A DNA stretch of 64,000 nt, from the NCBI GenBank assembly GCA_029259175.1, contig JAPDJH010000001.1, positions 128,001-192,000 of the forward strand, in the 5' to 3' direction. Both the position numbers and the translations under genes were made by a program. Shown one piece after another: positions 2,823-22,143 of this stretch; the first letter of the stretch is position 1, and each line of letters begins with the position of its first letter. The stretch is from Hadesarchaea archaeon (GTDB taxonomy: Archaea > Hadarchaeota > Hadarchaeia > Hadarchaeales > Hadarchaeaceae). The notes under the pieces are model-generated. The model saw nothing but the letters and a program-made list of their open reading frames with translations. It searched no databases and had not been told where the DNA came from.

Positions 2823-4149
2823 GGTGCGACAGAAACCTGCATTTTTTGATTTCCAAACGCGAATACCGGTGCATCTGATGTCGTGCCTTGGGATCCCCGT
2901 GGACGAATAGAACGAGTTTCGGCCTCGCGCGTTTGATGTTCTCTATGATGTGCTTTGGGTGGGCGTGCCCCCTGATCTCGAACTTCTTCACCCTGCACTT
3001 GACGGTCAGCTCGGACTCGCCGATGCGAAACTTCCCTCCCTCCTCCATCTTCCACAGATGCCATCCCGGCCAGTCCTCGTCCTGATACCCGACGATGAAT
3101 ATGGCGCTCCTCTTCTCGTCAAAGATTTTAATCGCGAGATTGGAGCTCGCCCCCTCCTGCAGCGTGCCGGGAGTCGCGACGAATATGCTCGGCTTCTTGC
3201 TGTCCCTAATCTTCCTGAACCTCTCGTCGGCCTCGGGGTTCGCATCGACGCCCCGGGGAAAGTCGATGCGGGTGAAGCATTCCCATATGGTCGCCACCTT
3301 TTCCCTGTAAGCAGGGTCCTTCCCGATTACGTCCAGCATATGGTTCATCATCCCTATTGAGTAGCACGGAACTCTCGGGAGCTTTCCCTCCCTCATGGCG
3401 CTGGCAATCACATACATGATCTCCTGCGCTCTCCCGGTAGCGAACACGGGGATGAGGATTCTCCCCTTTTGCTGGAGCACGTTCTTCATCTCCTCGATGA
3501 GGCTGTTCTCCGCTGAAATGATGCTGGTGGTCGCATCTGGCCTCGAAAACTCCGCGCCGTACGTGCTCTCGGAGATCACCACATCGGCCTCCTCCCACTT
3601 CTCGAAGTTGCCGCCCATGCGCGTGTCGAAGGTGCAGATGTCGCCTGTGTAGAGTATCGTGGCTCCGTCCCAGTTCAGTACGATTTGGGCGGAGCCGGGT
3701 ATGTGCCCGGCGTCCCTGAAGACGGCGCTGATCCCGTCGTCGATCTGGAACGCTTCTCCGTATTCTCTCGTCTCCCACACATTCTCCGGCGGCAGGGGCG
3801 GCGAGGGTTCGCCTCTTCTCCTCCTCACCCTTACCGCGTCCTTGAGGATGATGTAGGAGAGCTCCTTGGTGAGCGGCGTGGAAAAAATTTTGAGATTTTT
3901 GTTCTTCTCGAGCAACCAGGGCAGGGCCCCGATGTGGTCTCGGTGCGAGTGAGTTATCAGCACCGCCAGCAGCTTCTTGCCTTTCAGCGGTTCGAAGTTG
4001 GGGATTTGGTCTTTTTTCGGCGATGTCCCGCAGTCCAGCATCACGTACCTCTCACCATCACCCACGAGGTAGCAGCTCCTGCCGACCTCGTCTGCCCCCC
4101 CGAGTGGCAAAAATTCTAAAAATTTCTTGGCGCCCGCTTGGTCGGTCAT
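2737..4149 (-). CDS. MBL-fold beta-CASP nuclease (CPSF/RNase J-like)
   Basis: PLGGADEVGRSC, THSHRDHIG, AGHIPGSA, YTGD, SESTYG, GRAQE, GHAH, VHGD. Start placed at ATG 4149 (MTDQAG), just after the upstream stop. Confidence 0.9.
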   Translation of the reverse strand: MTDQAGAKKFLEFLPLGGADEVGRSCYLVGDGERYVMLDCGTSPKKDQIPNFEPLKGKKLLAVLITHSHRDHIGALPWLLEKNKNLKIFSTPLTKELSYIILKDAVRVRRRRGEPSPPLPPENVWETREYGEAFQIDDGISAVFRDAGHIPGSAQIVLNWDGATILYTGDICTFDTRMGGNFEKWEEADVVISESTYGAEFSRPDATTSIISAENSLIEEMKNVLQQKGRILIPVFATGRAQEIMYVIASAMREGKLPRVPCYSIGMMNHMLDVIGKDPAYREKVATIWECFTRIDFPRGVDANPEADERFRKIRDSKKPSIFVATPGTLQEGASSNLAIKIFDEKRSAIFIVGYQDEDWPGWHLWKMEEGGKFRIGESELTVKCRVKKFEIRGHAHPKHIIENIKRARPKLVLFVHGDPKARHQMHRYSRLEIKKCRFLSHLGETRVRFKVRTGKYDLSPLPGAPPTES

Positions 4150-4154
4150 CAGCC

Positions 4155-4523
4155 TCACCGAGCCGAAGTAATTCCTCCCCACGGAAGATATACTTTGCTC
4201 ACCTGGAGTCCCAGCCTGATCCTGCCGCGGCCGATTGCGTTTTCCCACCAGTCAAAGGTCCAGGAGGACTTCAGGGCGGTTTTCACTATGATCTTGTCGT
4301 TCTTCCGCACGCACACTAGGTCCAGCTCCCCGTAGCAGACCCGCAGGGCCCGATCTCCCTCTGCCGCTACCATCCCTTCCCTCACGGCTCTCCTGCACAG
4401 CCTGAGGGCCGCGCTCGGATTGGATATGTTGAAGCGTTGCTTGAGCCTCAGAAGCGCGTGCTTGGTTACCACGAACTTCAGCTTCTTGTTGTCGTTCAGG
4501 TCAACCGCTTTTTCCATTTTCAT
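4155..4523 (-). CDS. DUF4258/RelE-like (BECR-fold) putative RNase toxin
   Basis: VVTKHALLRLKQRF...IIVKTA pattern; small and basic. Confidence 0.6.
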   Translation of the reverse strand: MKMEKAVDLNDNKKLKFVVTKHALLRLKQRFNISNPSAALRLCRRAVREGMVAAEGDRALRVCYGELDLVCVRKNDKIIVKTALKSSWTFDWWENAIGRGRIRLGLQVSKVYLPWGGITSAR

Positions 4524-4546
4524 ACCACAATAATTCTATAATACAA

Positions 4547-4600
4547 GTAGTATATAAATTTTTCTCTTTCTAATACTGGTGGTAAAGGTTTATATACTAC
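4547..4600. promoter_or_regulatory. Divergent promoter/operator: perfect 12-bp inverted repeat containing both TATA boxes
   Basis: GTAGTATATAAA (4547-4558) / TTTATATACTAC (4589-4600), between the RNase operon and the RHH gene. Confidence 0.7.
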
Positions 4601-4627
4601 AAGAGAACAGTAAAAGTGGTGAGGGAA

Positions 4628-4786
4628 GTGGCTGAGAGGAAGGGGAAGGTCACCAGCATCCGAATCAGGGATGAGGGGCTGTGGAAGGAGGCGAAGATGC
4701 TCGCGATAGAGGAAGACACCACCCTGAGCGAGCTGGTGGAGGATCTCTTAAGGAAAGAGCTCGCCAAGAAGAAGTCCGGAAAATAG
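4628..4786 (+). CDS. Ribbon-helix-helix (CopG-like) regulator/antitoxin, 52 aa
   Basis: Below ORF-track cutoff: MAERKGKVTSIRIRDEGLWKEAKMLAIEEDTTLSELVEDLLRKELAKKKSGK; GGTGAGG RBS. Confidence 0.8.
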   Translation: MAERKGKVTSIRIRDEGLWKEAKMLAIEEDTTLSELVEDLLRKELAKKKSGK

Positions 4787-4909
4787 CGGAAGTCAGCATG
4801 AGTGATAACATTAGCAGAAACTCAGGCATGAACCTCGAATGGGCATTGGTGTTTTGTTGAACTGTCGCGAACTAAAAAGGCGAAGGAAAAGCTACTGGGA
4901 GAGAGAATC

Positions 4910-5608
4910 GTGATAGCGGTTTATTATACTGAGAGCGAAACGGGAACGAAAATCTCATGCCCCCTCTGTAAAATGAAACGCGAAGAATGGTATGGCTTGG
5001 AGCCGGAGAACGATGCGGAGCGGAAAAAGCTGGAAGAAAAGCTTGGAGATATTGCAAGCTGGCTTGTTTGTGCGGAGTGCCTCGAAACCGCAGAGCAGAT
5101 ACTTGGCTGTGAGATAAGGCTTGTAACCGCCGAGGATGCAGCAAAGCTCGCTGACGAGCAACTCTCAGAAACCGTTCCCGAAGGGGTTGCAGAGTATATC
5201 AAAGCCGTGGCTGATGAGAAATGCCCGTTTTGCGGGCAACCCGCAGAAGTGAAATTCGAGTATCTTCCCAAGAGCGAAAATTGGGGTGCTTACCTCCCGT
5301 TTAGGCGTGTCATTCTCTCCTGCAGTTCCTGTGGCAGTGTGAAAAAAACAGCCCCGCGCATGGACGAACCTTTGGGGTACTTTGTGATCGGAACAATCCT
5401 TGGTTTTGATAATAGGGTTCTAGTGGTGGAAGTTGCTCCCTCCGCTCCATCGTTTGTGCCAGAGGATATTCGCATTCAAGATAAAGACAGAGAAATCCTT
5501 GTGCTCGAACACCAGTGCGACCCTGTGGTGCTCGGCACTTTCAAGACGGCAGGGGAACTTGTTGAAATCTTGGTGATAGGAAACAAAGCGATTAAGGTCG
5601 AGGGATGA
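4910..5608 (+). CDS. Hypothetical protein with multiple CxxC (two Zn ribbons)
   Basis: CPLC/CAEC and CPFC/CSSC pairs. Confidence 0.65.
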   Translation: MIAVYYTESETGTKISCPLCKMKREEWYGLEPENDAERKKLEEKLGDIASWLVCAECLETAEQILGCEIRLVTAEDAAKLADEQLSETVPEGVAEYIKAVADEKCPFCGQPAEVKFEYLPKSENWGAYLPFRRVILSCSSCGSVKKTAPRMDEPLGYFVIGTILGFDNRVLVVEVAPSAPSFVPEDIRIQDKDREILVLEHQCDPVVLGTFKTAGELVEILVIGNKAIKVEG

Positions 5609-5626
5609 AAGAAGCTATATATTAAC

Positions 5627-6004
5627 ATGCGGAATAACTTCGCTCGTCTGACGCCACGGGAACTCGAAAAGCTCTCCACCGACTTCTTTAGGAAAATGTG
5701 TGGGGAGGTCAAGTCAACACCATACGTGAAGGACTATAGAGCGGACGTCATAGCAGGGGAGGATGACATGTGGTGCTCGTCCAAGCACAGCCGAAGGCAC
5801 AATGTTGGAGGCGAAGTCCAACGAACACTTAGGATGACGCGGAAGCACGGGGCGAACAAGGCGGTGTTTATTACCTCCTCGAACTTTTACCCGGGAAGCG
5901 GAAAAGCATACAAAGGGGTGCCAATCGAGCTTAGAATTGCAACAGATTCTCCTAGCTACTGGAAAGAATTTCGAAGTTTTGGTGGCCTGGTTGCTAGCGT
6001 TTAA
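5627..6004 (+). pseudogene. mrr: Frameshifted Mrr-family (type IV) restriction endonuclease
   Basis: LTPRELEKL, DYRADVIA and KAVFITSSNF are in the listed frame. The catalytic VVLVQA (5770-5787) and FTREAEK (from 5886) lie in other frames. Confidence 0.65.
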
Positions 6005-6073
6005 ATAATAGCGGGTGCTCTTTTGAATCCCAACGTTTTTTATTTTCACCTCCAGAAAGTGATATGCGAAATC

Positions 6074-7051
6074 ATGAGAGTCTCCTTGCTAACAGAGATA
6101 GCTCCAGAGAATAAGCTTTTGAGTAGGATAGCTTCTGAAGCTAGAAACGCAAAGACCGCATTCATAGCGGTTTCATTTATTCAAAGGGAGGGTTTGAAAT
6201 ACTTCTTCGAAAGCATAAAAGGAATGTTAAATAAGGGAAAGCAAGTTACAATTTACACATCGGGTTACCTTCGAATTACTGAGCCAAACGCATTGGAGGA
6301 TCTGTTGAAATTGACTAAAAGCTACAATTCTTTAAAAGTCTATTTTAACCCGGACGACAGGTTCCATTCCAAATTCTTCTTGTTTGAAAAGCCGAACAAA
6401 ACTTATAGCCTTTTTTTGGGTTCTTCTAACATAAGCCTGGGCGGGCTGGCTGAAATTGGGGAGTTAAACGTCCATATTAGTGGCAAAATCTCAGACCAGA
6501 TTTACAGAGACTTGAAAATTGCGATTGACAATCTAAGAAAGAATAGGCGCTTTAAGAAAATTGACAGGGATGTGATATCACAATATAAAACACAATTTAG
6601 AAAACAGAGAAAACGAGAAAGGAGAGGCACGGGGGCGAGACCGGTTTACCACAAACCTTCTCTTCCACCGCTACCAACCTTGCCGGTTTATGTTGTTGTT
6701 GACGAATTCACTAGCGAGGAGATGAGGAAAATCAAAGAAAAACATCCAAGATGGAAAGATTACGTAGACTATATGTCGTCTCTCAACGGGTTGAAAAAAG
6801 GAGATCCCTTTCTTTTAATTAGAAACATTCGTGGGAGACCCAAAATGTTTAATGTTGCTCAATTTATCGAATATGATAGGATTGAAGGCATAGGAAAAAT
6901 TGCTCACATAGAGCCTTACTTCAAAAGAGATCGTCCTCTGAAAAATCTAGCGAAAAAGCTTAGACTCTCAGAGAAAAAGCTTTTGGAGAGGAAAAAATTG
7001 GATAACATTGAGATTGCCATATTGAGAAGAAACTTCAAGATAGACATTTAG
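6074..7051 (+). CDS. PLD-family (NgoFVII-like) nuclease with unassigned C-terminal domain
   Basis: IAVSFI, FHSKFFLFEK (HxK), LGSSNIS..GL...GELN. Likely start ATG 6074. Confidence 0.8.
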   Translation: MRVSLLTEIAPENKLLSRIASEARNAKTAFIAVSFIQREGLKYFFESIKGMLNKGKQVTIYTSGYLRITEPNALEDLLKLTKSYNSLKVYFNPDDRFHSKFFLFEKPNKTYSLFLGSSNISLGGLAEIGELNVHISGKISDQIYRDLKIAIDNLRKNRRFKKIDRDVISQYKTQFRKQRKRERRGTGARPVYHKPSLPPLPTLPVYVVVDEFTSEEMRKIKEKHPRWKDYVDYMSSLNGLKKGDPFLLIRNIRGRPKMFNVAQFIEYDRIEGIGKIAHIEPYFKRDRPLKNLAKKLRLSEKKLLERKKLDNIEIAILRRNFKIDI

Positions 7052-7201
7052 ATAGTGTGAATGACTTTTCCCTCTTTTAGCACTTCCGCAGACATAAGAT
7101 AGCGGAGCGTGAATAAACATGCCTCAGGAGGTTACATCTGCGGAACTTGTGCACATCAACAAGGCTTGTGTAAGTAGGTTTGCACTTAATCTACGGTTTC
7201 G

Positions 7202-11216: not shown

Positions 11217-12605
11217 GTGAAGCACAAGGTTGTATCGCTGTTTTCGGGAGCCGGCGGGCTGGATTTGGGTTTTGCTTCTTCAGGAAAATTTGAAATACTG
11301 CTGGCAAACGAAATCTTGGATCCCCCAGCTGAAACTTATTCGCTGAACTTTAAAGTTGAAAAAGTAAGCCAGCGCGTGTCCCTTCCATGCATTTTGAGGT
11401 CTGATGTTGCCGACCTGGACTTCTCAACGCTTCAGGGAAGTGAGATAGACGTCGTTATAGGAGGGCCACCGTGCCAAGACTTTTCAATAGTTCGAGGACC
11501 GGCGACGGAGAGGAAGGGAGTGGAGGTAAAACGAGGCAGGTTGTACGCGCACTTTGTGCGGGCTTTGATAAAATTGCAACCCAAGGTTTTCGTGTTCGAA
11601 AATGTTCCAGGCTTGAAAAGCTCCAACAATGGCTTGGCATATCGAACTATTTTAGAGGATTTTAAGAATCTTGGCATTCGATGGGCGGAGGTAAAGGAAG
11701 TTCTGGAGAAGCAGAACGGCAACGGGAAGAGCGTCGGCTACGAAGTAGTGTTCAGCGAAGTAGTGAATATGTCAAAATTGGGAGTTCCTCAAGCGCGGGA
11801 GAGGCTTATCATCGTCGGCGTGAGGCGTGATATTCTTCATGCAGGAGGTGGCGCTCGTTTGTGGAGGCTGGCTCAGCACCTCCGCACGGTCCTTAGCGGT
11901 TGTGGAAAAGCGGTTTCAGACTGCCCTCTAACCCCCATCGAAGCTTTTGAAGGGAAGCCTCTCCCAGAACTCCAAAGCGTATACGAGGACGTGATGAGGG
12001 AATATGCTGATGTCTTTTCCGAAGTTGCTACATCGACAGCGAAGGAGTGGAAGCGAAAAGTCTGGGACCGCCTCACGTTCGACGCGGTGAGAGACTACAC
12101 ATATATAAACGAAATAAAAGTGCCAGAAAACTGGCTTGAAAATGCCTTTAAGGAGCACGCGGAGCTTCTCGAGGAGCTTGGATACAAAGGCGTCAAAGTG
12201 GCGGAGATAGCGCCTCCAGACGGAAGCAATGCTAGGCCGAAAGAGTCCCGAACCGTCATCGAAAGGCTTAAGAGAATTCCGCCCGGGGCGAACCACGAAT
12301 TTGTAAGGGGAACCAAATGGGAGGTTGAAGGGCGGGGCATGAGCCTCATATACCGGCGCATCTTTCCCCTGAAGCCTGCGTATACGGTAGTAGCGTACGG
12401 TGGCGGTGGAACGTGGGGGTATCACTACGAGCGGGATCGAGGAATGCTTACCAACCGAGAACGGGCCCGGCTTCAAACATTTCCCGACTGGTTTTTGTTC
12501 TGCGGAGGGTGGGCGCAAGTTCGAGCGCAGATAGGCGAAGCTGTTCCGCCTCTTGCAGCAAAAAGGATTGCTAGCGCGCTTGATGAATTCTTGAAGCATG
12601 TCTGA
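11217..12605 (+). CDS. dcm: DNA (cytosine-5)-methyltransferase
   Basis: LFSGAGG, GGPPCQDFS, ENVPG, QARER, RERARLQTFPD, QIGEAVPP. Confidence 0.95.
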   Translation: MKHKVVSLFSGAGGLDLGFASSGKFEILLANEILDPPAETYSLNFKVEKVSQRVSLPCILRSDVADLDFSTLQGSEIDVVIGGPPCQDFSIVRGPATERKGVEVKRGRLYAHFVRALIKLQPKVFVFENVPGLKSSNNGLAYRTILEDFKNLGIRWAEVKEVLEKQNGNGKSVGYEVVFSEVVNMSKLGVPQARERLIIVGVRRDILHAGGGARLWRLAQHLRTVLSGCGKAVSDCPLTPIEAFEGKPLPELQSVYEDVMREYADVFSEVATSTAKEWKRKVWDRLTFDAVRDYTYINEIKVPENWLENAFKEHAELLEELGYKGVKVAEIAPPDGSNARPKESRTVIERLKRIPPGANHEFVRGTKWEVEGRGMSLIYRRIFPLKPAYTVVAYGGGGTWGYHYERDRGMLTNRERARLQTFPDWFLFCGGWAQVRAQIGEAVPPLAAKRIASALDEFLKHV

Positions 12606-12650
12606 ACTCGCTATCGACTTTTTAATTTGCCCGGAAGCAAATAAAAAATC

Positions 12651-13325
12651 GTGCGGGCGCAAGAGAAGAAGACTGAGTTCAGAAAGCAGATGATCAAGTG
12701 GTACAGAAGATACGGAAGGCACGATCTTCCGTGGAGGAAGACTTCCGATCCTTGGAAAATACTGCTAGCTACATTAATGCTCAGAAAAACAACAGCTCGG
12801 CAAACAGAGAAGATTTATAAGAAGTTCATAGAGCGCTATCCCAATCCCCAAAGCGTGTGTTCTGAAAGCGAGAAGAAAATCAGGTCAGTGATACGCCCGC
12901 TGGGGATAGAACACCAGCGCGCGCGCCTGATAAAGCGCTTGGCCTCAGAAATTGTGGAAAAATTTGGGGGAAATGTGCCAGCAGATATGCGCAAGCTGAA
13001 GTTACTTAAAGGGGTTGGCGAATACACCGCTTCAGAAGTTCTGCTTGTAGCTTACGGCGAGCCACGACCGCTTTTAGACCGTAACATGATTCGAGTAATA
13101 GAGAGAGTCTTCGGCATAAAATCAAAAAAAGCGCGACCCCACACGGATGCACAACTTTGGAAATTCTGTAAGAGCTTGCTTCCAAAGGATCCGGAGCTGG
13201 CAAAGGAATTTAACTACGGGGTGCTGGACTTTGCTAGCTCAATCTGCCAAATCACGCCGAAGTGCGAACGTTGCCCGCTACGCTTAATCTGCTATTATTT
13301 TGCCAGACGGAAAGTTGGCGCTTAA
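12651..13325 (+). CDS. HhH-GPD [4Fe-4S] mismatch glycosylase (MIG/MutY family; T:G repair)
   Basis: DLPWRKT, LMLRKTTA, LKGVGEYTA, LLDRNMIRV, CQITPKCERCPLRLIC; directly downstream of dcm. Confidence 0.85.
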   Translation: MRAQEKKTEFRKQMIKWYRRYGRHDLPWRKTSDPWKILLATLMLRKTTARQTEKIYKKFIERYPNPQSVCSESEKKIRSVIRPLGIEHQRARLIKRLASEIVEKFGGNVPADMRKLKLLKGVGEYTASEVLLVAYGEPRPLLDRNMIRVIERVFGIKSKKARPHTDAQLWKFCKSLLPKDPELAKEFNYGVLDFASSICQITPKCERCPLRLICYYFARRKVGA

Positions 13326-13604: not shown

Positions 13605-15206
13605 ATGGGCAGGAACCCCGTCACGCGAAACGAAATAGCGAAGGTTCTTTCCGACCTCAAGCCGAGGAGCGTGAGAGAAATAGCCGAGGAAGCAGGTCTC
13701 ACTCCAAAAGTCGTTGGGGCTGCCCTGGACCGGATGTGGAGGGCAGGGCTGGTGCTCCGGACGAGGCAGCCCATCCGAGAGCGAACGAAGATCTTCAGGG
13801 GACGAGCTGGGACGAGTGAGAACCTGCGGTCCTACTACCTCTATGTGCTGAAGCCCGAAGGGAAGGAGAGGTTGAGAATTGGGGAACACGAGTTCGTCCC
13901 ATTCTCCACAGAGTACTTGGATGTGCGGGGAGGGGGGAGGATCAGCAAAGCGAAGCTGATTCTGGAGTTCCTGCGGAAGCACCGGGACAGGGCGTGGTTC
14001 TCCGTCGAGATAGCGGAGGCGCTGAAGGACAAGGGCGTGAAGGTGCGGGACATCATGCCCACCGTAAGGCGCTACCAGCGGAGGGGGCTGGTTTTCGTGA
14101 AGGGATTTACAACGGCTGGCGGGCGGGAGACCCCGACCGAGTATGGGTATGTCATCACTTGGCTTGATCGTGACAAGCCGATTGAGCGGGCGATTGAGGA
14201 GGCGCTGAAGCGGTATGAAGCCGCCCTGAACCGCAAGCGGCTCGAGTCACCTACGGTCGAGCGCTACAACCGCGTCCGCGAGCTTATCATAACCCAATCC
14301 AAGCTCGGGCACCTTACCGATGTGGAGTACATCACGAACCAGCTCCGCTGTTCGAGGTATCAGGCTCAGGATGCCCTTAAGAGGGTTCAGCAGCTCTTCG
14401 GCGACATAAAGGAGGTCAAGCTCTTCGACCTCTACAAGTTCTACTACCACGAGTCGATGCCGGAGGCGAAGCTCAGGGCAGCGATAAAGATGAAGGAGCA
14501 GTACATACGGGCACATGGCGGGCGGAAGCACCGTTATGGGCACAACTGGGAAGCGGTGGTGGAGTGGTTCGTCGAGACTTTCACTCCCGGGGCACGCTTC
14601 TGGGAGCAAAAGCACAGGGGGGAAGGGATGGATCCGCGGAGGATAACCCTCTACTTGATAAAGAATGTGGGGAAGCGGAGGCGACGGGCGGAGGTTGACC
14701 GCGTGTGGGAGGTGCGGGAGGATCCCTTCAGCCCACCGACCGTCAATGTGCTCTCCTGTAAAGCGGGGGTGGTGCGCAAGCAGGACATAGAGGACTTCTT
14801 TGAGGTTCTGCGCTGGAGCAAGGAGTTCGGGGCGGACACCCCGGACGGGAGGGTGATAAAGCAGGGAGTCGTCGGGAAGTTCGCCGCCGAGACCTTCGAC
14901 CCGCGTGAGAAAGTCAAGCTGAAGGACGGGACGGAGATAACCCTCTCCCAGTACGCGAGCAGGCTTGGCATCACCCTCATCAAGGCTTCCGACTTCAACG
15001 AAATGATGCGGAAGTGGGGATGTTCCCCGAAGGTGAATGTCCAGAAGATTTGTAAGTGGGCCAAGAACGAGAAAGAGGTCAGGGAGATCTTGACATCGAT
15101 TTACCAGAATCCATCGCGAGCCGAAGAAATCTTGGAAAAAGTTAGAGAACGAAACCTTCCGCTTTACCAGTTTGAGAAAAAACTTGAGGAGAGTGGAAAA
15201 TGTTAG
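13605..15206 (+). CDS. Multi-wHTH protein with C-terminal PD-(D/E)XK-like nuclease domain
   Basis: SVREIAEEAGLTPKVVGAALDRM and FSVEIAEALKDKGV (HTHs); NWEAVVEW...EVDRVW...LSCK. Confidence 0.65.
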   Translation: MGRNPVTRNEIAKVLSDLKPRSVREIAEEAGLTPKVVGAALDRMWRAGLVLRTRQPIRERTKIFRGRAGTSENLRSYYLYVLKPEGKERLRIGEHEFVPFSTEYLDVRGGGRISKAKLILEFLRKHRDRAWFSVEIAEALKDKGVKVRDIMPTVRRYQRRGLVFVKGFTTAGGRETPTEYGYVITWLDRDKPIERAIEEALKRYEAALNRKRLESPTVERYNRVRELIITQSKLGHLTDVEYITNQLRCSRYQAQDALKRVQQLFGDIKEVKLFDLYKFYYHESMPEAKLRAAIKMKEQYIRAHGGRKHRYGHNWEAVVEWFVETFTPGARFWEQKHRGEGMDPRRITLYLIKNVGKRRRRAEVDRVWEVREDPFSPPTVNVLSCKAGVVRKQDIEDFFEVLRWSKEFGADTPDGRVIKQGVVGKFAAETFDPREKVKLKDGTEITLSQYASRLGITLIKASDFNEMMRKWGCSPKVNVQKICKWAKNEKEVREILTSIYQNPSRAEEILEKVRERNLPLYQFEKKLEESGKC

Positions 15207-15268
15207 AAAATCTATGTAATGAAGCCATAGAATTGAGAGTTTATACTAATGGAAAGACTAAGTAGAAT

Positions 15269-15691
15269 TTGGTGAGCGCTGTGAAACATTGGTTGTGTAT
15301 CACCAACGAAGCCAATTGGGCGGTTGTGAAAACCAAGAAAGTATGGGGTGTTAATTCGAAACACGAAAAAGTAATGAATATGGTAGAGAAAGACGATAAA
15401 TTAGTTTTTTATGTGAAGCCTTTACGCATTGGAGGTATTTTCACCGCAATTTCCAAACCATATAAGGATGAGACTCCTATTTTTTCTGGAGGAGAATTTC
15501 CTTACAGAGTTAAGATTAAACCACTCGTGCTCCCGAAAAAATTCCTCGACTTTTACTCATTGTTTGGAAGACTCAAATTCATCACTCAAAAGAAGAAAAA
15601 AGGTTGGGGCGGGCACTTACAAGGAAAAGCTATGCGAATTATTCCAAAAGAAGATTTTGACTTGATCAAAAGAGAATTAGAGCGGATTTAA
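15269..15691 (+). CDS. EVE (PUA-like) domain protein
   Basis: HWLCITNEANW...VWGV...DKLVFYVK...FPYRVKIKP...MRIIPKEDF. Confidence 0.85.
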   Translation: MVSAVKHWLCITNEANWAVVKTKKVWGVNSKHEKVMNMVEKDDKLVFYVKPLRIGGIFTAISKPYKDETPIFSGGEFPYRVKIKPLVLPKKFLDFYSLFGRLKFITQKKKKGWGGHLQGKAMRIIPKEDFDLIKRELERI

Positions 15692-15703
15692 AGGTGATTT
15701 TTA

Positions 15704-17155
15704 ATGGAAGTGAATACTTCTGTAGCTGATTACACAACTTTCAAAAGTCAAAAAGAAAAGCATTTTGTAAGAAAAGAAAAAGTTTTTGGTCAGTTTATGA
15801 CTCCCGCCGAGGTGGCGGGTTTTATTGTAAGTTTCGCGATCCAATCACTCGAATATAAACCCAAGCTTGCCATTGATCCGGCGTGTGGCGATGGAATTTT
15901 TTTGAGAGAGCTTGTGAGAGCTGGAGTTCCCCATATTGTGGGTATTGATATAGATCCCGAAGTATCGGAATCGATCCCTCCGGATATTAAATCTCAGCCT
16001 AATGTAGAACTTATTATCCCCCAAGACGGGTTGGAGGACTCGAGATATGAAGGAAAAGCAGACATTGTCGTAGGCAATCCTCCTTTCAGTGCCAAATATG
16101 GGCGGATAAAAGACACCCGACTCTCGAATTTTGAATTAGGGAAACAAAAGACAAGTCAGGCAATAGAAATTTTATTTTTGGAGAAGTTTATACGATTAGC
16201 CAAAAACGGAGGGGTGATAGGAATCATTCTGCCTTTCGGTATTTTTGCCAATTTACCACTTCGGGATGTTCGAGAATTTATATTAAAAAACACCGAAGTT
16301 CTTGCCGTGGTTTCTTTACCACGTTTCATCTTTAGAAGCGTCTCCAACACAAGTTCGAAGACCTGTATTTTATTTGCCAGAAAGAGAAACTCTCCAAACA
16401 CTAAAGAAGTCTATATGTCTATTGTGAATCGAATAGAGGAATTGCCACTCCTTCTGGACAGAAAAGAACACGAATCACCAATGGCAAAATTTGTAAAATT
16501 AGAAGACCACATCCTTTATCCAGAATACTATCTTCTGTTTTCCGAACTCCCCAAAACATCATATCCGACAATGAAGTTAGGAGACTTGGTCGATATCTCC
16601 TGTGGCAGAACAGAATATGGGGAAAAGAGAAAATTCGTAGAAAAAGGCATTCCCTTTATTTCAGCAAAAACTGTTACGCAGCTCGGCATAGATTTCTCAC
16701 GAGATAGGAAGTTTGTCGAGCCTGGCAGTGAAATGGATAAGAAGAGCGCTCGTGTTAAGGTTGGCGATGTCGTCTTTGTTAGGGTTGGTGTTGGGTGTAT
16801 CGGAAGAGCAGCCGTAATTACAGATGAAAATGATCTTGGGGTTGTGGATGATTGGTCATACATCTTAAGAACGAAAAGAAACACTATTTCTCCATATTTC
16901 TTAGTTTTTTACCTCCAATCAAATTTCGTGCGCTCACTAATAAAAAAGTTAAGTAGAGGAGTTGGGACGGTGACCCTCCCACAAGCTCTTTTGAAACAAA
17001 TACGAATTCCTATTCCTGAAAAAGAGATTGAGAGAAAGCTTAAAAAAATTTATTTAGAGATGGTTAACGCGAGAAGAAAAGGAAAAACAATTCTGGCGAA
17101 AAAGAAATTTGAAGAAGGATTGTCCCTGTTAAAAAAAGAAGTTTTTCAAGAGTGA
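15704..17155 (+). CDS. N6-adenine DNA methyltransferase with C-terminal HsdS-like TRD (probable cognate M.PabI-like MTase)
   Basis: GQFMTP, IDPACGDGIF, VGNPPF; C-terminal KLGDLV...VKVGDVVFVR...IRIPIP; adjacent to the R.PabI gene. Confidence 0.88.
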   Translation: MEVNTSVADYTTFKSQKEKHFVRKEKVFGQFMTPAEVAGFIVSFAIQSLEYKPKLAIDPACGDGIFLRELVRAGVPHIVGIDIDPEVSESIPPDIKSQPNVELIIPQDGLEDSRYEGKADIVVGNPPFSAKYGRIKDTRLSNFELGKQKTSQAIEILFLEKFIRLAKNGGVIGIILPFGIFANLPLRDVREFILKNTEVLAVVSLPRFIFRSVSNTSSKTCILFARKRNSPNTKEVYMSIVNRIEELPLLLDRKEHESPMAKFVKLEDHILYPEYYLLFSELPKTSYPTMKLGDLVDISCGRTEYGEKRKFVEKGIPFISAKTVTQLGIDFSRDRKFVEPGSEMDKKSARVKVGDVVFVRVGVGCIGRAAVITDENDLGVVDDWSYILRTKRNTISPYFLVFYLQSNFVRSLIKKLSRGVGTVTLPQALLKQIRIPIPEKEIERKLKKIYLEMVNARRKGKTILAKKKFEEGLSLLKKEVFQE

Positions 17156-17270
17156 TTACTTTTCCAATAGCGGTTTGTTTTAAACTCAGGGGAGGACTTG
17201 AGGGTCAGGACCCAAGCAGTTAAAAACTTTCCACCATTATTAAGCAGGGGCCTGTGAAGGTGGTAAGAAC

Positions 17271-17936
17271 ATGGGTATTAAATGTAGAGTTCTTTCCGAT
17301 GACCAAAGAAATATTGTGGTAGAATTACCTATTACTTTGCCCACAGCCTTAGTTAGAATTAAAGATAAGGATGGAAATCCAGTTGGGAGTGTTAGACAAC
17401 AAAATCTAAGGAAAGGGTGGTATATCGAATGGCAAATTTCATATTTTGATGAAAATAAGGAACTTGTGGAATTAGGGGAAATGTTCAGACTACTGGTAGA
17501 ATTCGGAAAACTCAACGAAGCAGAAATAAAAGAACTTTACCAAAACATTCAAAAAAGGAACACATTTTTTGAAGAAATTTTTTCTGTTTGTTTAGAAGAG
17601 AGTAAAAAACCACCAGAATTCGAAGGGTTTGTGTTATGGTATAGGAAAAACCCAATTTTGAGAAAATATCTTTCTGATGGTTCCATCATCCACATAGAGT
17701 TAAGACATAAACAAAAAGCTGTGGGATACCAAGCTATGTTGTATCTATTTATTCCCATAGAAAATGTGAGATCGAAGGAAGGCGAATTGATAATAAACCG
17801 TCCCGCACGTCAAAAAGAGGTCGTTGTGTGGTTTCCAAAAAAAGAACACATTATAGAACTTGTAAAAGCGTTTTCTTGTATGTCGAGAAAGCATTTCGAG
17901 GATATTATGTCTATAGTTAGGAGTTTTCTTTGTTAA
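17271..17936 (+). CDS. R.PabI-family restriction DNA glycosylase (HALFPIPE fold), catalytic residues intact
   Basis: IVVELPIT.PT..VRIK, YIEWQISY, HKQKAVGYQAMLYLFIP and SRKHFED match R.PabI motifs as I recall them. Confidence 0.9.
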   Translation: MGIKCRVLSDDQRNIVVELPITLPTALVRIKDKDGNPVGSVRQQNLRKGWYIEWQISYFDENKELVELGEMFRLLVEFGKLNEAEIKELYQNIQKRNTFFEEIFSVCLEESKKPPEFEGFVLWYRKNPILRKYLSDGSIIHIELRHKQKAVGYQAMLYLFIPIENVRSKEGELIINRPARQKEVVVWFPKKEHIIELVKAFSCMSRKHFEDIMSIVRSFLC

Positions 17937-17961
17937 TTACCAAAAATGCCCAGAGGAGAAC

Positions 17962-18579
17962 ATGATCGTGCAAGTTCAAGGTGATAAATTAGTTGTGGAA
18001 TTTCCTCTTAGTCAACCAAAAAGTTCTTGGAGAGTCAGGTCAAAAAAAAGAAGAGGGCGAAGGGGCTGGAAAAAAGACCCGAATTTATGGATTTTTAGAC
18101 CCACTTTTGGAGACTTGATCTATGAAGGAGACATTTTCGAATGGATGATAAGTAATGAGGAACTGCGCGAGATACTTTATGTTGCAAAATGCATGGAAGC
18201 TGATTATTATGAAGAAATCAAGAAAGCCATACATAATTTGAACAAGTTTGAAAGTCACGTAGATATAACACTTGGTTGGGGCGTAAAAATCGAAGGTGAA
18301 CTGAGACCCAAACAAAAAAAAGGAGAAGAACTGACTCCCTGGTTTTTTATTTTGTTTCCATTGGATAGAAGTTCAAATGTCTACTATTTGAAAGATGCGA
18401 AAAACAACAAGATTGAAAATCCCATCAACCGAAAAATCAGAGCAGGAGATAGACTGGTTTGGGTTGTAGATCTCAATTGGCTCAAAACCATTATTCTTAA
18501 ATTGGCTGGATTGAGCGAGGATCATAAGGAAAAAATTATTAAGGAGGTCTTTGAACCAATTGATAATCTCAAGTTATAA
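17962..18579 (+). CDS. Divergent R.PabI-fold paralogue, probably catalytically impaired
   Basis: Colinear motifs LVVEFPLSQPKSSWRVR, FEWMISN, LRPKQK...WFFILFP, NRKIRAGD, LSEDHKEK. Confidence 0.7.
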   Translation: MIVQVQGDKLVVEFPLSQPKSSWRVRSKKRRGRRGWKKDPNLWIFRPTFGDLIYEGDIFEWMISNEELREILYVAKCMEADYYEEIKKAIHNLNKFESHVDITLGWGVKIEGELRPKQKKGEELTPWFFILFPLDRSSNVYYLKDAKNNKIENPINRKIRAGDRLVWVVDLNWLKTIILKLAGLSEDHKEKIIKEVFEPIDNLKL

Positions 18580-19257
18580 ATTTACTCTAAACAATCTTTT
18601 TTGAGCGAGCTGGTAGTATCTCTTATTTATTTCAAAACCGATAAACCGTCTTTTCAGTTGCTTACAAGCCACAGCAGTACTCCCGCTTCCGATGAAAGGA
18701 TCCAAAACCAAATCGCCTTCCTTAGAAAACATCCGTAAAATTTCTTTGATGAAGTGCTTGGGTTTAGGCGTTGGATGGTCTATAAACCCTTCGTCGGGTT
18801 CAACCAGCTTCCCCGGAGTATCAATGAAAAGATCTCTATTTCGGGAAATTATTTTTGGATTTCCTTTTTTGAAAACGAAACAAGACATATACTTGGTAAT
18901 ACCAATTGGAGATCTAACTGCTCCCTCAGGACAGTATAAAATAATTTGCCAAAAATATGTGAATGGATTGTGTTTGAACAAAGCAGGCAAAAATTTCGTG
19001 CTAAAAAATGTGATGAAAAAAGAGTTGTCTCTTAGCACCCTATAGCACTCGGGCAGAATTTTATAGAAAGTTGTCAAATTTTCGTCACTATAAACTCCTT
19101 CCTTACCAAGTCCGTAAGGTGGATCTGTAAGGATTAAATCTATTTTTCTGTTAGGTATTTTTTTGATCAGCTGGAGAGCATCGCCACAAATTATTTTATT
19201 AATGAAATCATCTGGAAACTTCAATTTCGAAATGTCATCGTTTCTTTGTGTGTCCAT
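18574..19257 (-). CDS. Class beta N4-C/N6-A DNA methyltransferase
   Basis: LILTDPPY precedes HPTPKP and VLDPFIGSGSTAVA. Confidence 0.9.
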   Translation of the reverse strand: MDTQRNDDISKLKFPDDFINKIICGDALQLIKKIPNRKIDLILTDPPYGLGKEGVYSDENLTTFYKILPECYRVLRDNSFFITFFSTKFLPALFKHNPFTYFWQIILYCPEGAVRSPIGITKYMSCFVFKKGNPKIISRNRDLFIDTPGKLVEPDEGFIDHPTPKPKHFIKEILRMFSKEGDLVLDPFIGSGSTAVACKQLKRRFIGFEINKRYYQLAQKRLFRVNL

Positions 19258-19688
19258 TTATCTCCCGATAAAATTCGGTTGGAGTTCCTTAAAAACAGAA
19301 AAACTGTTTTTATGTCGGGGAGCGAGTCTCTTTCTTTGATGGACTTCTCGGTAGCCTCCCAATCTGGTTTTCTTCCTTTTTCTATCTCAGCCACAGCGAA
19401 TACTGTATCCACTCCCACCGCGTTCACCTCCCGTAATCTCGCATTCTCTTCATTTCATAAAAATTTCCTGCCAGACTTTATCAATCGGAACGAGAGCTTC
19501 AAATATGACACATGGCAACCGAAATAGAAACCCCTCAATTACGACACGTCCAATACATAAGCCTTAGGTGAGTTTCCCAGCTTGGGAAAAATCTATTTCA
19601 AGAACGGTGCGGAGGCAGATTCATCTATGGCTCGACCACCACGTATTCTTGGACAGCAAACAGAAACGTCTATGTGGATTGGCGTTGT

Positions 19689-20267
19689 TTACTTAATTTT
19701 ACTCCATTTTCCAACATACCTTTCAGGATACATATGTAGATTCTTTTCAACTTTCAGACGGTATTTGGGAGGGATTTTTCTCTTGTATTCCTCATATGTA
19801 GGATAACGGCAGAGAAGACACGGATTGGTTTTTGGATGAGCAGCACCGAATTCCTTTCTTTTCCCCCTCCATATCATCTTCTTCACTTCTTCTCGCAACT
19901 CTCCGTGGGTGAATATTATGAATTCTTTCGGTTTGTGTCCTTCAAAAGTTACGAACACGCAATAATCAAATTTTTTCTGGATGATTTGCTTGCCAAGCCC
20001 AAAAGATGCATCAGCGTAGCCATCCTCATCAATCAACCCTGTTTTTACCTCCACTCTCTTCCCTTTATCTGGAAGATAAATGTCGGCGGATTTGTCTTCT
20101 CTTTCATCCAATATCTGAACTTTGTGCCCTCTCTTCAACAATTCAAGGGCGACTAAGTATTCCGCATATCTTTCCCTTAATTTTTTGTCAGAAATTTCAA
20201 CCTGATCCAAAATCCTCAACACTCTTTCAAGATATTTTACGATTAAACTCAGTTCCTTCTTTCTCAT
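19689..20267 (-). CDS. PD-(D/E)XK nuclease (putative REase)
   Basis: YAEYLVALELLKRG...ADIYL...RVEVKTG. Start ATG 20267. Confidence 0.7.
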   Translation of the reverse strand: MRKKELSLIVKYLERVLRILDQVEISDKKLRERYAEYLVALELLKRGHKVQILDEREDKSADIYLPDKGKRVEVKTGLIDEDGYADASFGLGKQIIQKKFDYCVFVTFEGHKPKEFIIFTHGELREEVKKMIWRGKRKEFGAAHPKTNPCLLCRYPTYEEYKRKIPPKYRLKVEKNLHMYPERYVGKWSKIK

Positions 20268-20668
20268 CGCCTTTACTTGTATTAGTGAGAAATAAATCTT
20301 CCCAAAATTTAGTATCCACCTGTCCACTCTAAGGAGGGTATGCCCCCTCCAAAATCCCGTGCCCTCTCTCCCTTTCAAGCCTCCTGATCTGATCGCCTCT
20401 GTGTTAAGACAGCCTCCTCGCAAAGCCTCGGCTTGGCTCAGCCCCCAAGCCCGGCTGTCTTGCGCTCAGCCCATTTTCAGGTAATTTTATGGGTACATGG
20501 GCTCCCGCAGTGTACAGGCGGATCCCAAATTCGCCCAAAAAGAAGCCCGTATAAACCTCCTTTTCCCCCTCTGCGTACTGGTGGAGCTGAAATTTAGGAG
20601 GCTAAAAATGGCGGTGAACTTTTCATTTTAACCCCAATGACGAATAAACATATCGGAGATGGGTTCGT

Positions 20669-21400
20669 ATGGGTTCGGCTCGGAGGTTAGAGGTCTCTTT
20701 CCCGATTGATACTGAAATGGCTGTGCGAACCGTTTTTGACAAGTTCCACGAAAAGTTAGGATATCCCAAGATACTTGAAAGCAGAGAAAAGTTTCCCGAC
20801 TACATTTTAGAAGATAGGAGAGGGAGAATAGTTCGTGCGGAAGCCAAACACTACGCCAGCGGAGCTAAAAGGTATAAAAAATTGGCTGAAAAGTGCGACT
20901 TGATAATATGCTGGTACGACGATTGGGGTGAGTGTCCCGTGCCCTGCTTGGAACTATGTAAGTATGTTAAAGCCAACCCGACCAAGGAAGTAATTGTTGT
21001 GCCCATCGGAAGGGGAAGAGAAAGACAATTAGATCCAGAAGTTGAGTGGCAAGTGATAAGAAAGAAGCACTTTTATCGATTACCATTTTGGGGGGGACCG
21101 AAGTATGAGGCAAAATACATCGCTTTCTATCACAGAGGAATTGAATACATAGCAAAACTAAAACTCCCATATGAAAAAACAACTTGGGGAAAAATTTACC
21201 GAGAAATTTATAGACTAACAAAAGATGAACGGTATAAACCAGAACCAGAATGGGAAAATGAACCCGCACTCAAATTGAAATTTGGTAGACTCATAAAAAT
21301 TAGAAAAATAGAGTTAAAGGGACCTTTTAGATTATGGCGTTACACTACTTTTGAAAAATTGTTGACGGCTAAAACGGTAGCTGAATTGACAGAAAAGTAA
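20669..21400 (+). CDS. PD-(D/E)XK nuclease fused to a C-terminal PUA-like domain
   Basis: FPDYIL...VRAEAK...CDLIICW; C-terminal half VIVVP..W..FYRLP..KYIAFY..IEYIAK. Confidence 0.65.
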   Translation: MGSARRLEVSFPIDTEMAVRTVFDKFHEKLGYPKILESREKFPDYILEDRRGRIVRAEAKHYASGAKRYKKLAEKCDLIICWYDDWGECPVPCLELCKYVKANPTKEVIVVPIGRGRERQLDPEVEWQVIRKKHFYRLPFWGGPKYEAKYIAFYHRGIEYIAKLKLPYEKTTWGKIYREIYRLTKDERYKPEPEWENEPALKLKFGRLIKIRKIELKGPFRLWRYTTFEKLLTAKTVAELTEK

Positions 21401-21402
21401 GG

Positions 21403-22143
21403 CTAATCTTCAACTATCGCAGCCCCACCCACCACCAAGTCCTGAGCCGCCGCGAACTCCTCCACGAGACTTGGCGGACAACGGGCTTCGCTGAGCAAAG
21501 CGAGTTTCGGCGTTAGCTTCCTCGCCACCACCCGCACCGAGTTCTCTCCCTTCTTCTTCCTCGCCACGGCTTTCGCATAGCCATCGGTTTCAAGCCTTCT
21601 CACTCGGTGTTCCCTTTTCGTGATGTGGGCGGGCAAATGCCACGAGGCTTTCACACTCGGGGAAGAAGGCTCAGCCCAGAGGCGGATGTAGGCACTCGGC
21701 ACCACCACGCAATCCAGAGGTGGCTCCAAACGCTTCAAATACCCATCTTTGACCACATACACCTTCCCGCCAATCCCCACGAACCGCCACCCCAACGGCT
21801 TCGCAAACCTCACCGCTTTGCCAGAAGGCTTGGTTTCCCCCATCAGTACCTCCAAAGGCACTTCGCAGTAAAGTTCAGCCTTCAGCCACTTTTGAAGTGA
21901 GAAAAAGTCCCTAACTCCCATCTCTATTTCTCGCTTGGCTCGTCTCAGGATCACCCGCCTTTCCGAGTGGTGTTCGTGCCTGATGCTTAGCCCCCCGACT
22001 TTGCTTTCCTCGTTCTCAAAGGGCAACTCAGCCAACGCCAGCCCTCTCGCAACCGTAAGCGGGATGGTCAGCCCGTATTTTTTGCCCTCTTGAACCAGCC
22101 GCACCAACCACCTCCGCCCCCGTTTAACGAACCAGAACCTCAT
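21403..22143 (-). CDS. Hypothetical basic protein
   Basis: 246-aa ORF overlapping the upstream ORF; no recognised motif. Confidence 0.55.
   Translation of the reverse strand: MRFWFVKRGRRWLVRLVQEGKKYGLTIPLTVARGLALAELPFENEESKVGGLSIRHEHHSERRVILRRAKREIEMGVRDFFSLQKWLKAELYCEVPLEVLMGETKPSGKAVRFAKPLGWRFVGIGGKVYVVKDGYLKRLEPPLDCVVVPSAYIRLWAEPSSPSVKASWHLPAHITKREHRVRRLETDGYAKAVARKKKGENSVRVVARKLTPKLALLSEARCPPSLVEEFAAAQDLVVGGAAIVED

Follow-up and report, generated by a model that had tools for sequence, protein, structure and literature searches.

A rare divergent HALFPIPE-fold protein beside a canonical PabI-type glycosylase in a Hadesarchaea archaeon, and its possible role as an autonomous partner of an M.PabI-type methyltransferase

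The window, a stretch of 64,000 nucleotides of Hadesarchaea archaeon DNA, contains a low-GC island at 15207..19600, recognised from its composition profile and the genome-wide GC (~0.35-0.40 in the island vs 0.53 in the genome), which carries five genes. The first of them (15269..15691, forward strand) encodes a stand-alone EVE (PUA-like) domain protein of 140 aa that matches PF01878 with E 5.7e-11 and, below the cut-off of that model, NF002008 with E 1.1e-33. It lies directly upstream of M1 (15704..17155, forward strand), a gamma-class N6-adenine DNA methyltransferase of 483 aa with a C-terminal TRD of the M.PabI type, matched by PF02384 (73 bits), PF07669 (47 bits) and, in the TRD, PF01420 (37 bits). 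Gene A (17271..17936, forward strand, 221 aa), which starts 115 bp beyond M1, encodes a canonical R.PabI-family restriction DNA glycosylase, and it is followed in the same direction, after a spacing of 25 bp, by gene B (17962..18579, 205 aa), assigned from its predicted fold and its family HMM to a rare and divergent HALFPIPE-fold family. Upstream of both A and B, 7-9 nt from the ATG, lies a purine-rich stretch that resembles a ribosome-binding site. The fifth gene, M2 (18574..19257, reverse strand), is convergent with B, the two 3' ends overlapping by 6 nt, and encodes a small beta-class N6/N4 DNA methyltransferase of 227 aa with a DPPY motif (PF01555, 116.5 bits), whose closest PDB sequences are methylases of the DpnA type, CcrM and MboIIA. 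The open reading frames for EVE, M1, A and B listed in an earlier note on this DNA are all present; M2 was absent from that list. A search for tRNA genes and att repeats at the island found no tRNA and no convincing att repeat. Between positions 15269 and 19257 there is a single GTAC, where dinucleotide shuffles predict 5.4 (p 0.027), and the host genome is without GTAC avoidance (O/E 1.01). With two HALFPIPE-fold R-type genes and two methyltransferases, the locus forms a composite PabI-type restriction-modification island.

R.PabI of Pyrococcus abyssi is the founding HALFPIPE restriction DNA glycosylase and targets GTAC; its structures include PDB 2DVY, 3WAZ, 5IFF and 6L2N, and it has been studied by cell-free expression and AP-site assays. 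Restriction glycosylases are known from one family and, according to the literature search, the characterised members all target GTAC and use the same catalytic triad, described for R.PabI as Tyr68, His211 and Asp214 (PMC10273834). Protein A is a plain member of this family. It aligns with R.PabI (PDB 2dvy) over residues 10-220 with E 7.2e-29, scores 39 bits against PF09522 (cut-off 25), and agrees with an alignment of 29 family sequences in all 22 invariant columns, among them E53, W54, Q55, Y58, Q148, H208 and D211, of which Y58, H208 and D211 represent the triad. Together with 7 metagenome proteins it forms one clade with 99% support. Having full-length homology, an intact triad and an M.PabI-type neighbour, A is, judged from its sequence, an ordinary homodimer-type R.PabI adenine glycosylase, presumably with GTAC as its target.

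The relationship of B to this family is far more distant. Searches with B against Pfam, NCBIfam and PDB sequences gave no match (no Pfam model, PF09522 included, at E<=0.1, the 25-bit gathering cut-off of PF09522 not being reached), a single-sequence phmmer search against PDB returned nothing at E<=10, and a direct BLASTP comparison of A with B was weak (E 0.002). When the two families are compared, hhalign joins them over 126 columns with a probability of 95.1% and E 3.2e-8, and an HMM built from 13 B-family sequences matches canonical PabI proteins over their whole length, at best with E 7e-11 (the protein of locus L011); the colinearity of A and B described earlier is therefore real and extends over the full length. 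The AF2 model of B (pLDDT 91.7, pTM 0.87) retrieves R.PabI and R.CcoLI chains as the top 14 Foldseek matches (E 2.5e-8, TM 0.65). In VIA-align it superposes on R.PabI with Z 17.2 and an rmsd of 3.1 Å over 176 of its 205 residues, and on R.CcoLI/R.HpyAXII (PDB 7CFA), the bacterial bifunctional HALFPIPE glycosylase/AP lyases, with Z 14.1, the next unrelated fold reaching Z 3.3. By this predicted structure the whole of B belongs to the HALFPIPE superfamily, as the earlier note had expected, and the profile comparisons show sequence homology to R.PabI proteins as well.

Several features set B apart from R.PabI, to which it is 17-22% identical in structure-based alignments. It is without some ~11 residues after the EW strand, and it has gained a basic insert at residues 28-38, the KKRRGRRGWKK stretch already noticed earlier, as well as a family-specific hairpin insert of roughly 15 residues (~136-153) that holds a nearly invariant Asp145. 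In R.CcoLI, insertions near the active site change the HALFPIPE chemistry by adding a Lys71-dependent AP lyase activity (PMC7806768); the beta-sheet insertion after its Tyr has no equivalent in B, which carries a deletion there, and R.CcoLI keeps Tyr52, His222 and Asp225 as a set, whereas B does not. The B family is rare, with 18 representatives at E<=1e-3 among 1.84 billion proteins. Across 13 aligned members, E60, M62, F129, L165, W167 and F197 are invariant and seven further columns nearly so, including W61, R119, P126, D145 and H188. Orthologues at 47-65% identity retain open frames; over six pairs dN is 0.24-0.47 and pS 0.68-0.90, and in the three pairs where dS is computable dN/dS is 0.12-0.25, synonymous sites being otherwise saturated. 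B orthologues are under purifying selection, and the neutral decay that had been considered for B was not observed. Within the HALFPIPE superfamily, the B proteins make up a rare sister family of their own that is not known to have been described before. A literature search, covering main texts and few subscription journals, found no paper on a divergent, tandem or heterodimeric PabI-fold protein, in agreement with the earlier note, which knew of no described heterodimeric restriction glycosylase.

On a mapping made by mixed sequence alignment only, Tyr68, His211 and Asp214 correspond in B to Asn65, His188 and Lys191, so that the R.PabI-type triad is incomplete. The changes from A to B pointed out previously, EWQISY to EWMISN, SRKHFED to SEDHKEK and KQKAVGYQ to KQKKGEELT, can all be read in the aligned translations, and the loss of the Tyr and Asp equivalents holds, His211 being kept. 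Among the 13 family members, Asn stands at the Tyr68 position in 10, Tyr in 2 and Trp in 1; the His211 position is His in 12; at the Asp214 position K, R, G, M, S or D occurs, an acidic residue in one member and a basic one in 11. Elements retained in B are Glu63, the wedge-loop Pro, the KQ(K/R) loop (Lys154-Gln155-Arg156 in R.PabI) and His211. Several base-reading positions are altered, with Gln65 replaced by Met and Gln161, Met163 and Tyr165 changed, when mapped onto the residues given in PMC7806768 section 7, and the target of B may therefore not be GTAC. Since the Tyr68 and Asp214 positions are unconserved in the family, B, if catalytic, must use a remodelled active site. The variability resembles that of a former active site under relaxed constraint, and it would suit a non-catalytic binder too. 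Nevertheless, the missing residues are no proof of inactivity, because reduced activity is left in R.PabI Y68F (PMC7229829) and sequence-specific cleavage persists in R.CcoLI D225N (PMC7806768). The description of B as "apparently inactive" in the earlier note stands for the two lost residues, while the inactivity itself is not established.

The surroundings of B-family genes in other genomes are informative about its partner. At L002, at L003/L004 (99.7% identical in DNA, hence one element seen twice and counted once) and at L005, a B-family gene lies tail-to-tail and overlapping with an orthologue of M1, and the only PabI-like sequence is B itself. This gene order is the one given for archaeal PabI systems, whose M.PabI homologues are gamma-type enzymes with a C-terminal TRD placed tail-to-tail with the R gene (PMC4615327 section 5). 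M1 of the window shares this architecture, and it differs in lying upstream of and co-directional with the R gene, as at L019, and in being preceded by an EVE gene; EVE genes adjoin M1-type methyltransferases in three of 14 full-length M1 loci (the window, L013 and L020). L002 and L003/L004 have no canonical PabI gene and are the only two A-less B loci with sufficient flank, L005 being cut off on its upstream side and too short to judge PabI absence; as both are metagenome contigs, a PabI gene elsewhere in those genomes is possible. Summed over the B+M1 modules of L002, L004 and L005, GTAC occurs once against 8.0 expected, which is weak evidence.

M1 orthologues (45-55% identity) have canonical PabI as their tail-to-tail partner in 10 loci and a B-family gene at L002-L005. 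In the M1 tree the B-linked enzymes form one clade (SH-aLRT 96) nested in a 99-supported clade with nine A-linked ones. Their TRD is conserved as much as the catalytic part; for the B-linked L004 and the A-linked L018 enzymes, identity is 0.71 in the TRD and 0.65 in the catalytic part. This conservation suggests that B-linked and A-linked enzymes probably methylate the same site. M2 orthologues (61-75% identity) adjoin canonical PabI and a gamma methyltransferase of roughly 378 aa in 14 loci. Three gene layouts were found: PabI with an M.PabI-type methyltransferase; PabI with a 378-aa gamma methyltransferase and a conserved small beta methyltransferase; and B with an M.PabI-type methyltransferase. 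They suggest that methylases and HALFPIPE genes have been exchanged as modules.

Gene A is equally found without B. Among species-representative genomes, none of 79 other PabI loci holds a B gene. In a genome of the same genus (G043), M1 (494 aa), A (224 aa, 66% identical to A of the window) and M2 (237 aa, 81% identical and convergent with A) are intact, and of B only 79 N-terminal residues are left. A second remnant, in G155, does not adjoin an M1-type gene. These remnants are reminiscent of the decay that R.PabI genes are reported to undergo frequently (PMC4615327 section 5; PMC10273834). Of six independent places with a B-family sequence, five have an M1-type gene beside it (the window, G043, L002, L003/4 and L005) and two have A, in sister species, at different positions and with B-family genes of different subtypes; this repeated adjacency could reflect a functional tie to A as well as to M1. 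B occurs without A and A without B, so neither protein needs the other, and the proposal that B is a subunit or regulator of A draws no support from the distribution of the two genes.

With the same kind of methyltransferase, B stands alone elsewhere, and it therefore probably works by itself and not as the subunit of a neighbour. The best explanation, to which a probability of about 0.5 may be given, is that B acts autonomously as a divergent restriction-type protein of the HALFPIPE fold, with the M.PabI-type methylase M1 as its partner. Under this explanation B would form its own halfpipe dimer and bind M1 target sites that are unmethylated, most likely GTAC or a site containing GTAC. It would then damage or block the bound DNA, through a remodelled active site if it is catalytic, and methylation by M1 would protect the host from it.

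A tentative alternative, appreciably less probable, is that B has given up glycosylase chemistry and become a catalytically dead HALFPIPE pseudoenzyme, which binds DNA sequence-specifically with base flipping, at PabI/M1 sites, or binds PabI itself, and serves as a shield, an antitoxin-like moderator or an anti-restriction factor. Within the island of the window it would make A less toxic, for instance by covering sites that await methylation; on mobile elements, B and M1 would be a two-part kit against PabI-type restriction, shielding incoming DNA until it is methylated. The B family fails to conserve the two residues whose mutation most impairs excision and retains the DNA-contact elements Glu63, wedge-loop Pro, KQ(K/R) and His211, by the roles assigned in PMC10273834 and PMC7229829, and the basic residue at the Asp214 position together with the RRGRRG insert would favour DNA binding. 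The L002 module adjoins a putative integrase-like ORF and a large putative primase/helicase-like ORF, both read from translations only, and B-type genes have come to lie beside A twice. On the other hand, B occupies the R position of the archetypal tail-to-tail PabI unit and decays as R genes do (G043, G155); A functions without it in all 79 other loci, so a moderator is not generally needed; and the activity kept by the Y68F and Asp-to-Asn mutants tells against equating lost residues with lost catalysis.

Heterodimeric Type II restriction enzymes of the BbvCI and Bpu10I type have one catalytically distinct or inactive subunit, and their subunit genes travel together. The window resembles them in having two homologous R genes side by side with two methyltransferases, and the earlier note had proposed that A and B pair as a heterodimer to form a restriction glycosylase that has one active site and excises bases strand-specifically or at asymmetric sites. 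This is unlikely. In its favour, the two genes are adjacent and co-directional, both with a ribosome-binding-like stretch of their own, a B-type gene also once lay beside A in G043, and the shared fold is one that dimerises in R.PabI (PMC10273834 section 2.4). At L020 there is another tandem pair of PabI paralogues, in which a copy close to R.PabI overlaps by 10 nt the start of a divergent A' (His211 to Asp, Asp214 to Val). But A' has no relative in 5.8 billion clusters and, by the B-family HMM, lies outside the B family, so that the tandem arrangement is not shared across the family as a conserved feature. The genes of an obligate two-subunit enzyme would be expected to co-occur wherever either is found, whereas A and B each occur without the other, each methyltransferase type occurs with canonical PabI alone, and the constant neighbour of B is M1. 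A facultative A/B heterodimer may exist in this one organism, although nothing in the data calls for one. That B is a decaying or functionless PabI-gene duplicate, as its two lost catalytic residues and the truncated relatives in G043 and G155 might suggest, is very improbable given its intact frame, its confident model, the constraint on its orthologues and the 13 invariant or nearly invariant columns across diverse members.

The autonomous reading and the pseudoenzyme reading of B bear differently on restriction by base excision. If B is active, the HALFPIPE scaffold supports a second mode of base-excision or DNA-damaging restriction, possibly directed at another base or site. If B is inactive, its role as a pseudoenzyme would be to control or counteract such restriction, and no earlier protein-level antagonist or moderator of a restriction glycosylase is known.

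The five genes of the island were confirmed, by ORF listing and base composition, within a low-GC stretch (GC 0.35-0.40, versus 0.53 for the genome). On the forward strand, an EVE gene (15269-15691, 140 aa, PF01878 match) is followed by the methylase gene M1 (15704-17155, 483 aa), by A, the canonical R.PabI-type gene (17271-17936, 221 aa; RE_R_Pab1 at 39 bits, cut-off 25), and, after a spacing of 25 bp, by B, the divergent PabI-fold gene (17962-18579, 205 aa, without any family match). The fifth gene, absent from the earlier note, encodes the small beta methylase M2 on the reverse strand (18574-19257, 227 aa; N6_N4_Mtase, 116.5 bits), and its 3' end overlaps that of B by 6 nt. Because M1 matches the N6_Mtase, Eco57I and Type I specificity-domain models, it is classed as an adenine methylase of the gamma class that carries a TRD of its own. 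Judged by its sequence, A is an ordinary R.PabI: its match to 2dvy, the sequence of the R.PabI crystal structure, spans residues 10-220 (E 7.2e-29), and it retains every one of the 22 columns that are invariant in an alignment of 29 family members, among them the equivalents of Glu63, Tyr68, Gln155, His211 and Asp214.

B found no match in Pfam, NCBIfam or the PDB sequences, and direct BLASTP relates it to A weakly (E 0.002). Profile-profile comparison of the A and B families gave a probability of 95% (E 3.2e-8), and an HMM of 13 B-family sequences matches canonical PabI ORFs over their whole length, the best E value being 7e-11. The AlphaFold2 model of B, built from an alignment of four sequences only, is confident (pLDDT 91.7, pTM 0.87). 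In keeping with the fold proposed in the earlier note, this model matches the HALFPIPE fold of R.PabI: Foldseek returned R.PabI/R.CcoLI chains only (E 2.5e-8, TM 0.65), the first unrelated match lying at E 0.05, and VIA-align superposed 176 of the 205 residues with an rmsd of 3.1 Å (Z 17.2; next fold, Z 3.3). From profiles and predicted structure, the relation between B and A is real and the fold common to both, but B belongs to a separate family. Besides the window's own protein, three B-family clusters are present in an index of 5.8 billion clusters, and in a complete HMMER search 18 of 1.84 billion representatives reached E<=1e-3. A pattern scan of species-representative genomes returned no member, and neither did IMG/VR. 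An intact B occurs in 1 of 66 genomes of the window's own phylum, with a remnant in one; the 401 genomes sampled from the phylum of genome G066 contain only one canonical PabI and one 40-aa B remnant. In genome G155, a 40-aa remnant (locus L091, 1486-1608) has no methylase nearby.

The decisive evidence on B is its genomic context. Scanning metagenomes with the B alignment yielded four loci, L002-L005, and in each of them B stands tail-to-tail with, and overlaps, an M1 orthologue (477-484 aa, 51-60% identity). Since L003 and L004 are one element, their DNA being 99.7% identical, and L005 ends just upstream of B, the independent loci with readable flanks number two: L002, with 5.0 kb upstream and 2.5 kb downstream, and L004, with 1.3 kb and 6 kb, respectively. 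Neither set of flanks contains a canonical PabI gene; only B resembles any of 29 PabI proteins. Across the independent places with a B-family sequence, an M1-type gene adjoins it in five of six and a PabI gene in two of six. According to section 5 of PMC4615327, the R and M genes of archaeal PabI systems are arranged tail-to-tail and the archaeal M.PabI homologues are gamma-type enzymes with a C-terminal TRD, an architecture shared by M1. The reading preferred here, with a probability of about 0.5, is that B would act on its own as a restriction-type protein, with M1 serving it; it probably works without PabI.

The converse survey, in which each species was represented by a single genome, yielded 79 distinct PabI loci; neither tblastn nor an HMM search outside the PabI gene itself showed a B-family protein at any of them. 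Co-occurrence therefore speaks against the subunit pairing of A and B put forward in the earlier note, with B found without PabI in L002 and L004 and PabI without B in 79 of 79 loci. PabI and an M1-type methylase occur together at 10 loci, nine of them tail-to-tail and one, L019, co-directional as in the window; L013 and L020, both among the ten, have in addition an EVE gene beside M1. At 14 further loci from very different phyla (L007-L009, L011, L027, L028, L045, L048, L050, L055, L071-L073 and L079), PabI is accompanied by a gamma methylase of about 378 aa and by an M2-type methylase with 61-75% identity to that of the window; the hosts include Nanoarchaeota, Woesearchaeota, Saccharibacteria, Parcubacteria, Omnitrophota, Ignavibacteria and others. 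Thus, both methylases of the window are themselves PabI-associated types. In L048, M2 forms part of a 440-aa ORF. Section 5 of PMC4615327 makes no mention of a PabI layout with two methylases. A partnership of B with M2 only is disfavoured, since in other places the genes of the M2 type keep company with canonical PabI, in these 14 loci and in the same-genus genome G043, and are never seen with B outside the window. Loci L022-L069, which include many Verrucomicrobiota MAGs, hold numerous longer PabI homologues (about 260-320 aa, with 28-33% identity to A) that have no M1- or M2-like neighbour by BLAST labels.

Residues were mapped on a mixed L-INS-i alignment of nine PabI-type and 13 B-family proteins, a sequence alignment and not a coordinate superposition, in which the two families are colinear, as had been said of A and B. 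The roles of the R.PabI residues are those described in sections 2.4 and 3.1 of PMC10273834, section 7 of PMC7806768, and PMC7229829. In the B family, the wedge-loop Pro27 is retained in most members, Arg32 is Arg or Lys, Glu63 is invariant, the Lys154-Gln155-Arg156 loop is mostly retained and His211 is retained in 12 of 13. Tyr68 is replaced by Asn in 10 proteins and by Trp in one, two keeping Tyr; Asp214 becomes K, R, G, M or S, with Asp in a single member; the base-reading Gln65 is an invariant Met; and Gln161, Met163 and Tyr165 are altered. B is also without some 11 residues after the EW strand, and has in addition a basic insert and a hairpin peculiar to the family, in which Asp145 is nearly invariant. 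The motif pairs quoted earlier for A and B (EWQISY/EWMISN, SRKHFED/SEDHKEK and KQKAVGYQ/KQKKGEELT), as well as the KKRRGRRGWKK insert, can all be read in the translations, and the alignment places Asn at the Tyr68 and Lys at the Asp214 position of B, so both equivalents appear to be lost, as claimed. The description of B as apparently inactive holds only in part: two catalytic residues are missing, but inactivity does not follow automatically, since R.PabI Y68F is reduced in activity and not abolished (in the text of PMC7229829) and R.CcoLI D225N still cleaves sequence-specifically (in that of PMC7806768). These same residues bear on the possibility that B binds without catalysing, in a protective or moderating capacity; their loss suits such a role, the residual activity of the mutants leaves room for catalysis, and the proposal is rated less probable than the preferred reading.

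A functional heterodimer of A and B, as imagined in the earlier note, is improbable. In its favour, B-type genes lie beside A in two sister species. The order in G043 is M1 (494 aa), a 79-aa ORF, A (224 aa, 66% identical) and a convergent M2 (237 aa, 81% identical). The small ORF (L086, 1435-1674), between intact M1 and PabI genes, is 54% identical over its first 57 residues to P0042, the B-family protein closest to it, after which the similarity ends; it is a truncated B of another subtype, on the opposite side of A compared with the window. This adjacency could point to a link with A, or just to the need of B for M1, and the intact A next to a truncated B implies that A does not need B. Tandem PabI paralogues occur more than once, given the window and L020, a locus of a Desulfurellaceae MAG (3783-7084). 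There, a gene closely resembling that of P. abyssi R.PabI overlaps by its 3' end the start of a second PabI-like ORF, A' (4478-5236, 252 aa), by 10 nt, and M1 and then EVE follow on the other strand. A' is very divergent: the Tyr is kept, but His211 is replaced by Asp and Asp214 by Val. However, it is not a B-family member, and since it has no relatives in the protein index it was rejected as a sign of a recurrent two-paralogue design. Prediction of the A+B complex scored 0.00 in both runs, without controls, and weighs neither for nor against binding.

B is under selection. Among the window, L002, L004 and L005, its amino-acid identity is 47-65%, with pS of 0.68-0.90 (saturated) and dN of 0.24-0.47; the neutral decay that was looked for did not appear, dN/dS being 0.12-0.25 in the three of six pairs with computable dS. 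That B is junk, for which its truncation in relatives might speak, is very improbable next to these values. The remaining probability goes to something not considered.

The preferred reading of the island is a composite of modules that can be exchanged: EVE-M1-A, as also arranged in L019, L013 and L020, to which a B gene and an M2 methylase are added. A search for tRNA genes at its borders found none. An imperfect 17-nt direct repeat of 82% identity (15207-15223 and 19588-19604) brackets it, with no integrase nearby; this sole candidate border is too weak to use and may well be due to chance. At 11217-13325, a C5-cytosine DNA methyltransferase (PF00145, 182 bits) is directly followed by an HhH-GPD base-excision glycosylase (PF00730, 60 bits); the pair looks like a methylase with a mismatch-repair glycosylase, so several genes for DNA modification lie in this neighbourhood. 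The ORF immediately before the island on its upstream side (13605-15206, 533 aa) has an N-terminal winged helix (ArsR/MarR-like, weak matches); the GC of this ORF, 0.57-0.60, exceeds the genome mean, and the ORF is missing from the G043 locus. Three ORFs of 243-246 aa (19689-20423, reverse; 20669-21400, forward; 21403-22143, reverse) gave no match to a Pfam or NCBIfam family above threshold, nor any relative among the fetched loci; two show, by eye, D...E-x-K-like stretches and could be candidate nuclease folds.

The host genome (G000) shows no avoidance of GTAC, the R.PabI target, with 2719 sites observed and 2684 expected (O/E 1.01), even though its PabI system is apparently intact. Such a count agrees with a recently acquired low-GC island as well as with efficient methylation, and says little. 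Within the modules, GTAC counts are 1 versus 5.4 expected for the island (p 0.027), 1 versus 8.0 summed over the B+M1 modules and 1 versus 16.7 summed over four PabI+M1 modules, all small numbers obtained with dinucleotide shuffles that ignore coding constraints. In the methylase tree, rooted on the 378-aa class, the B-linked M1s form one clade (SH-aLRT 96) within a 99-supported clade that contains nine A-linked M1s, and the M1s of the window and of L020 branch outside the latter. Between the B-linked L004 and the A-linked L018, identity is higher in the TRD (0.71) than in the catalytic part (0.65). The conserved TRD, the GTAC scarcity in the modules and the lack of avoidance in the host bear only indirectly on the target site.

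Searches of the open literature, covering main texts and including PMC4615327, PMC10273834, PMC7806768 and PMC7229829, turned up no mention of a family like B, a tandem PabI pair or a heterodimer. B is a member of an undescribed sister family of restriction glycosylases, and the simplest reading of its history is that a B-type gene replaced a PabI gene beside a methylase of unchanged specificity. Given its changed base-reading residues, B may recognise another site, or a longer one, in which the methylated base is still included.
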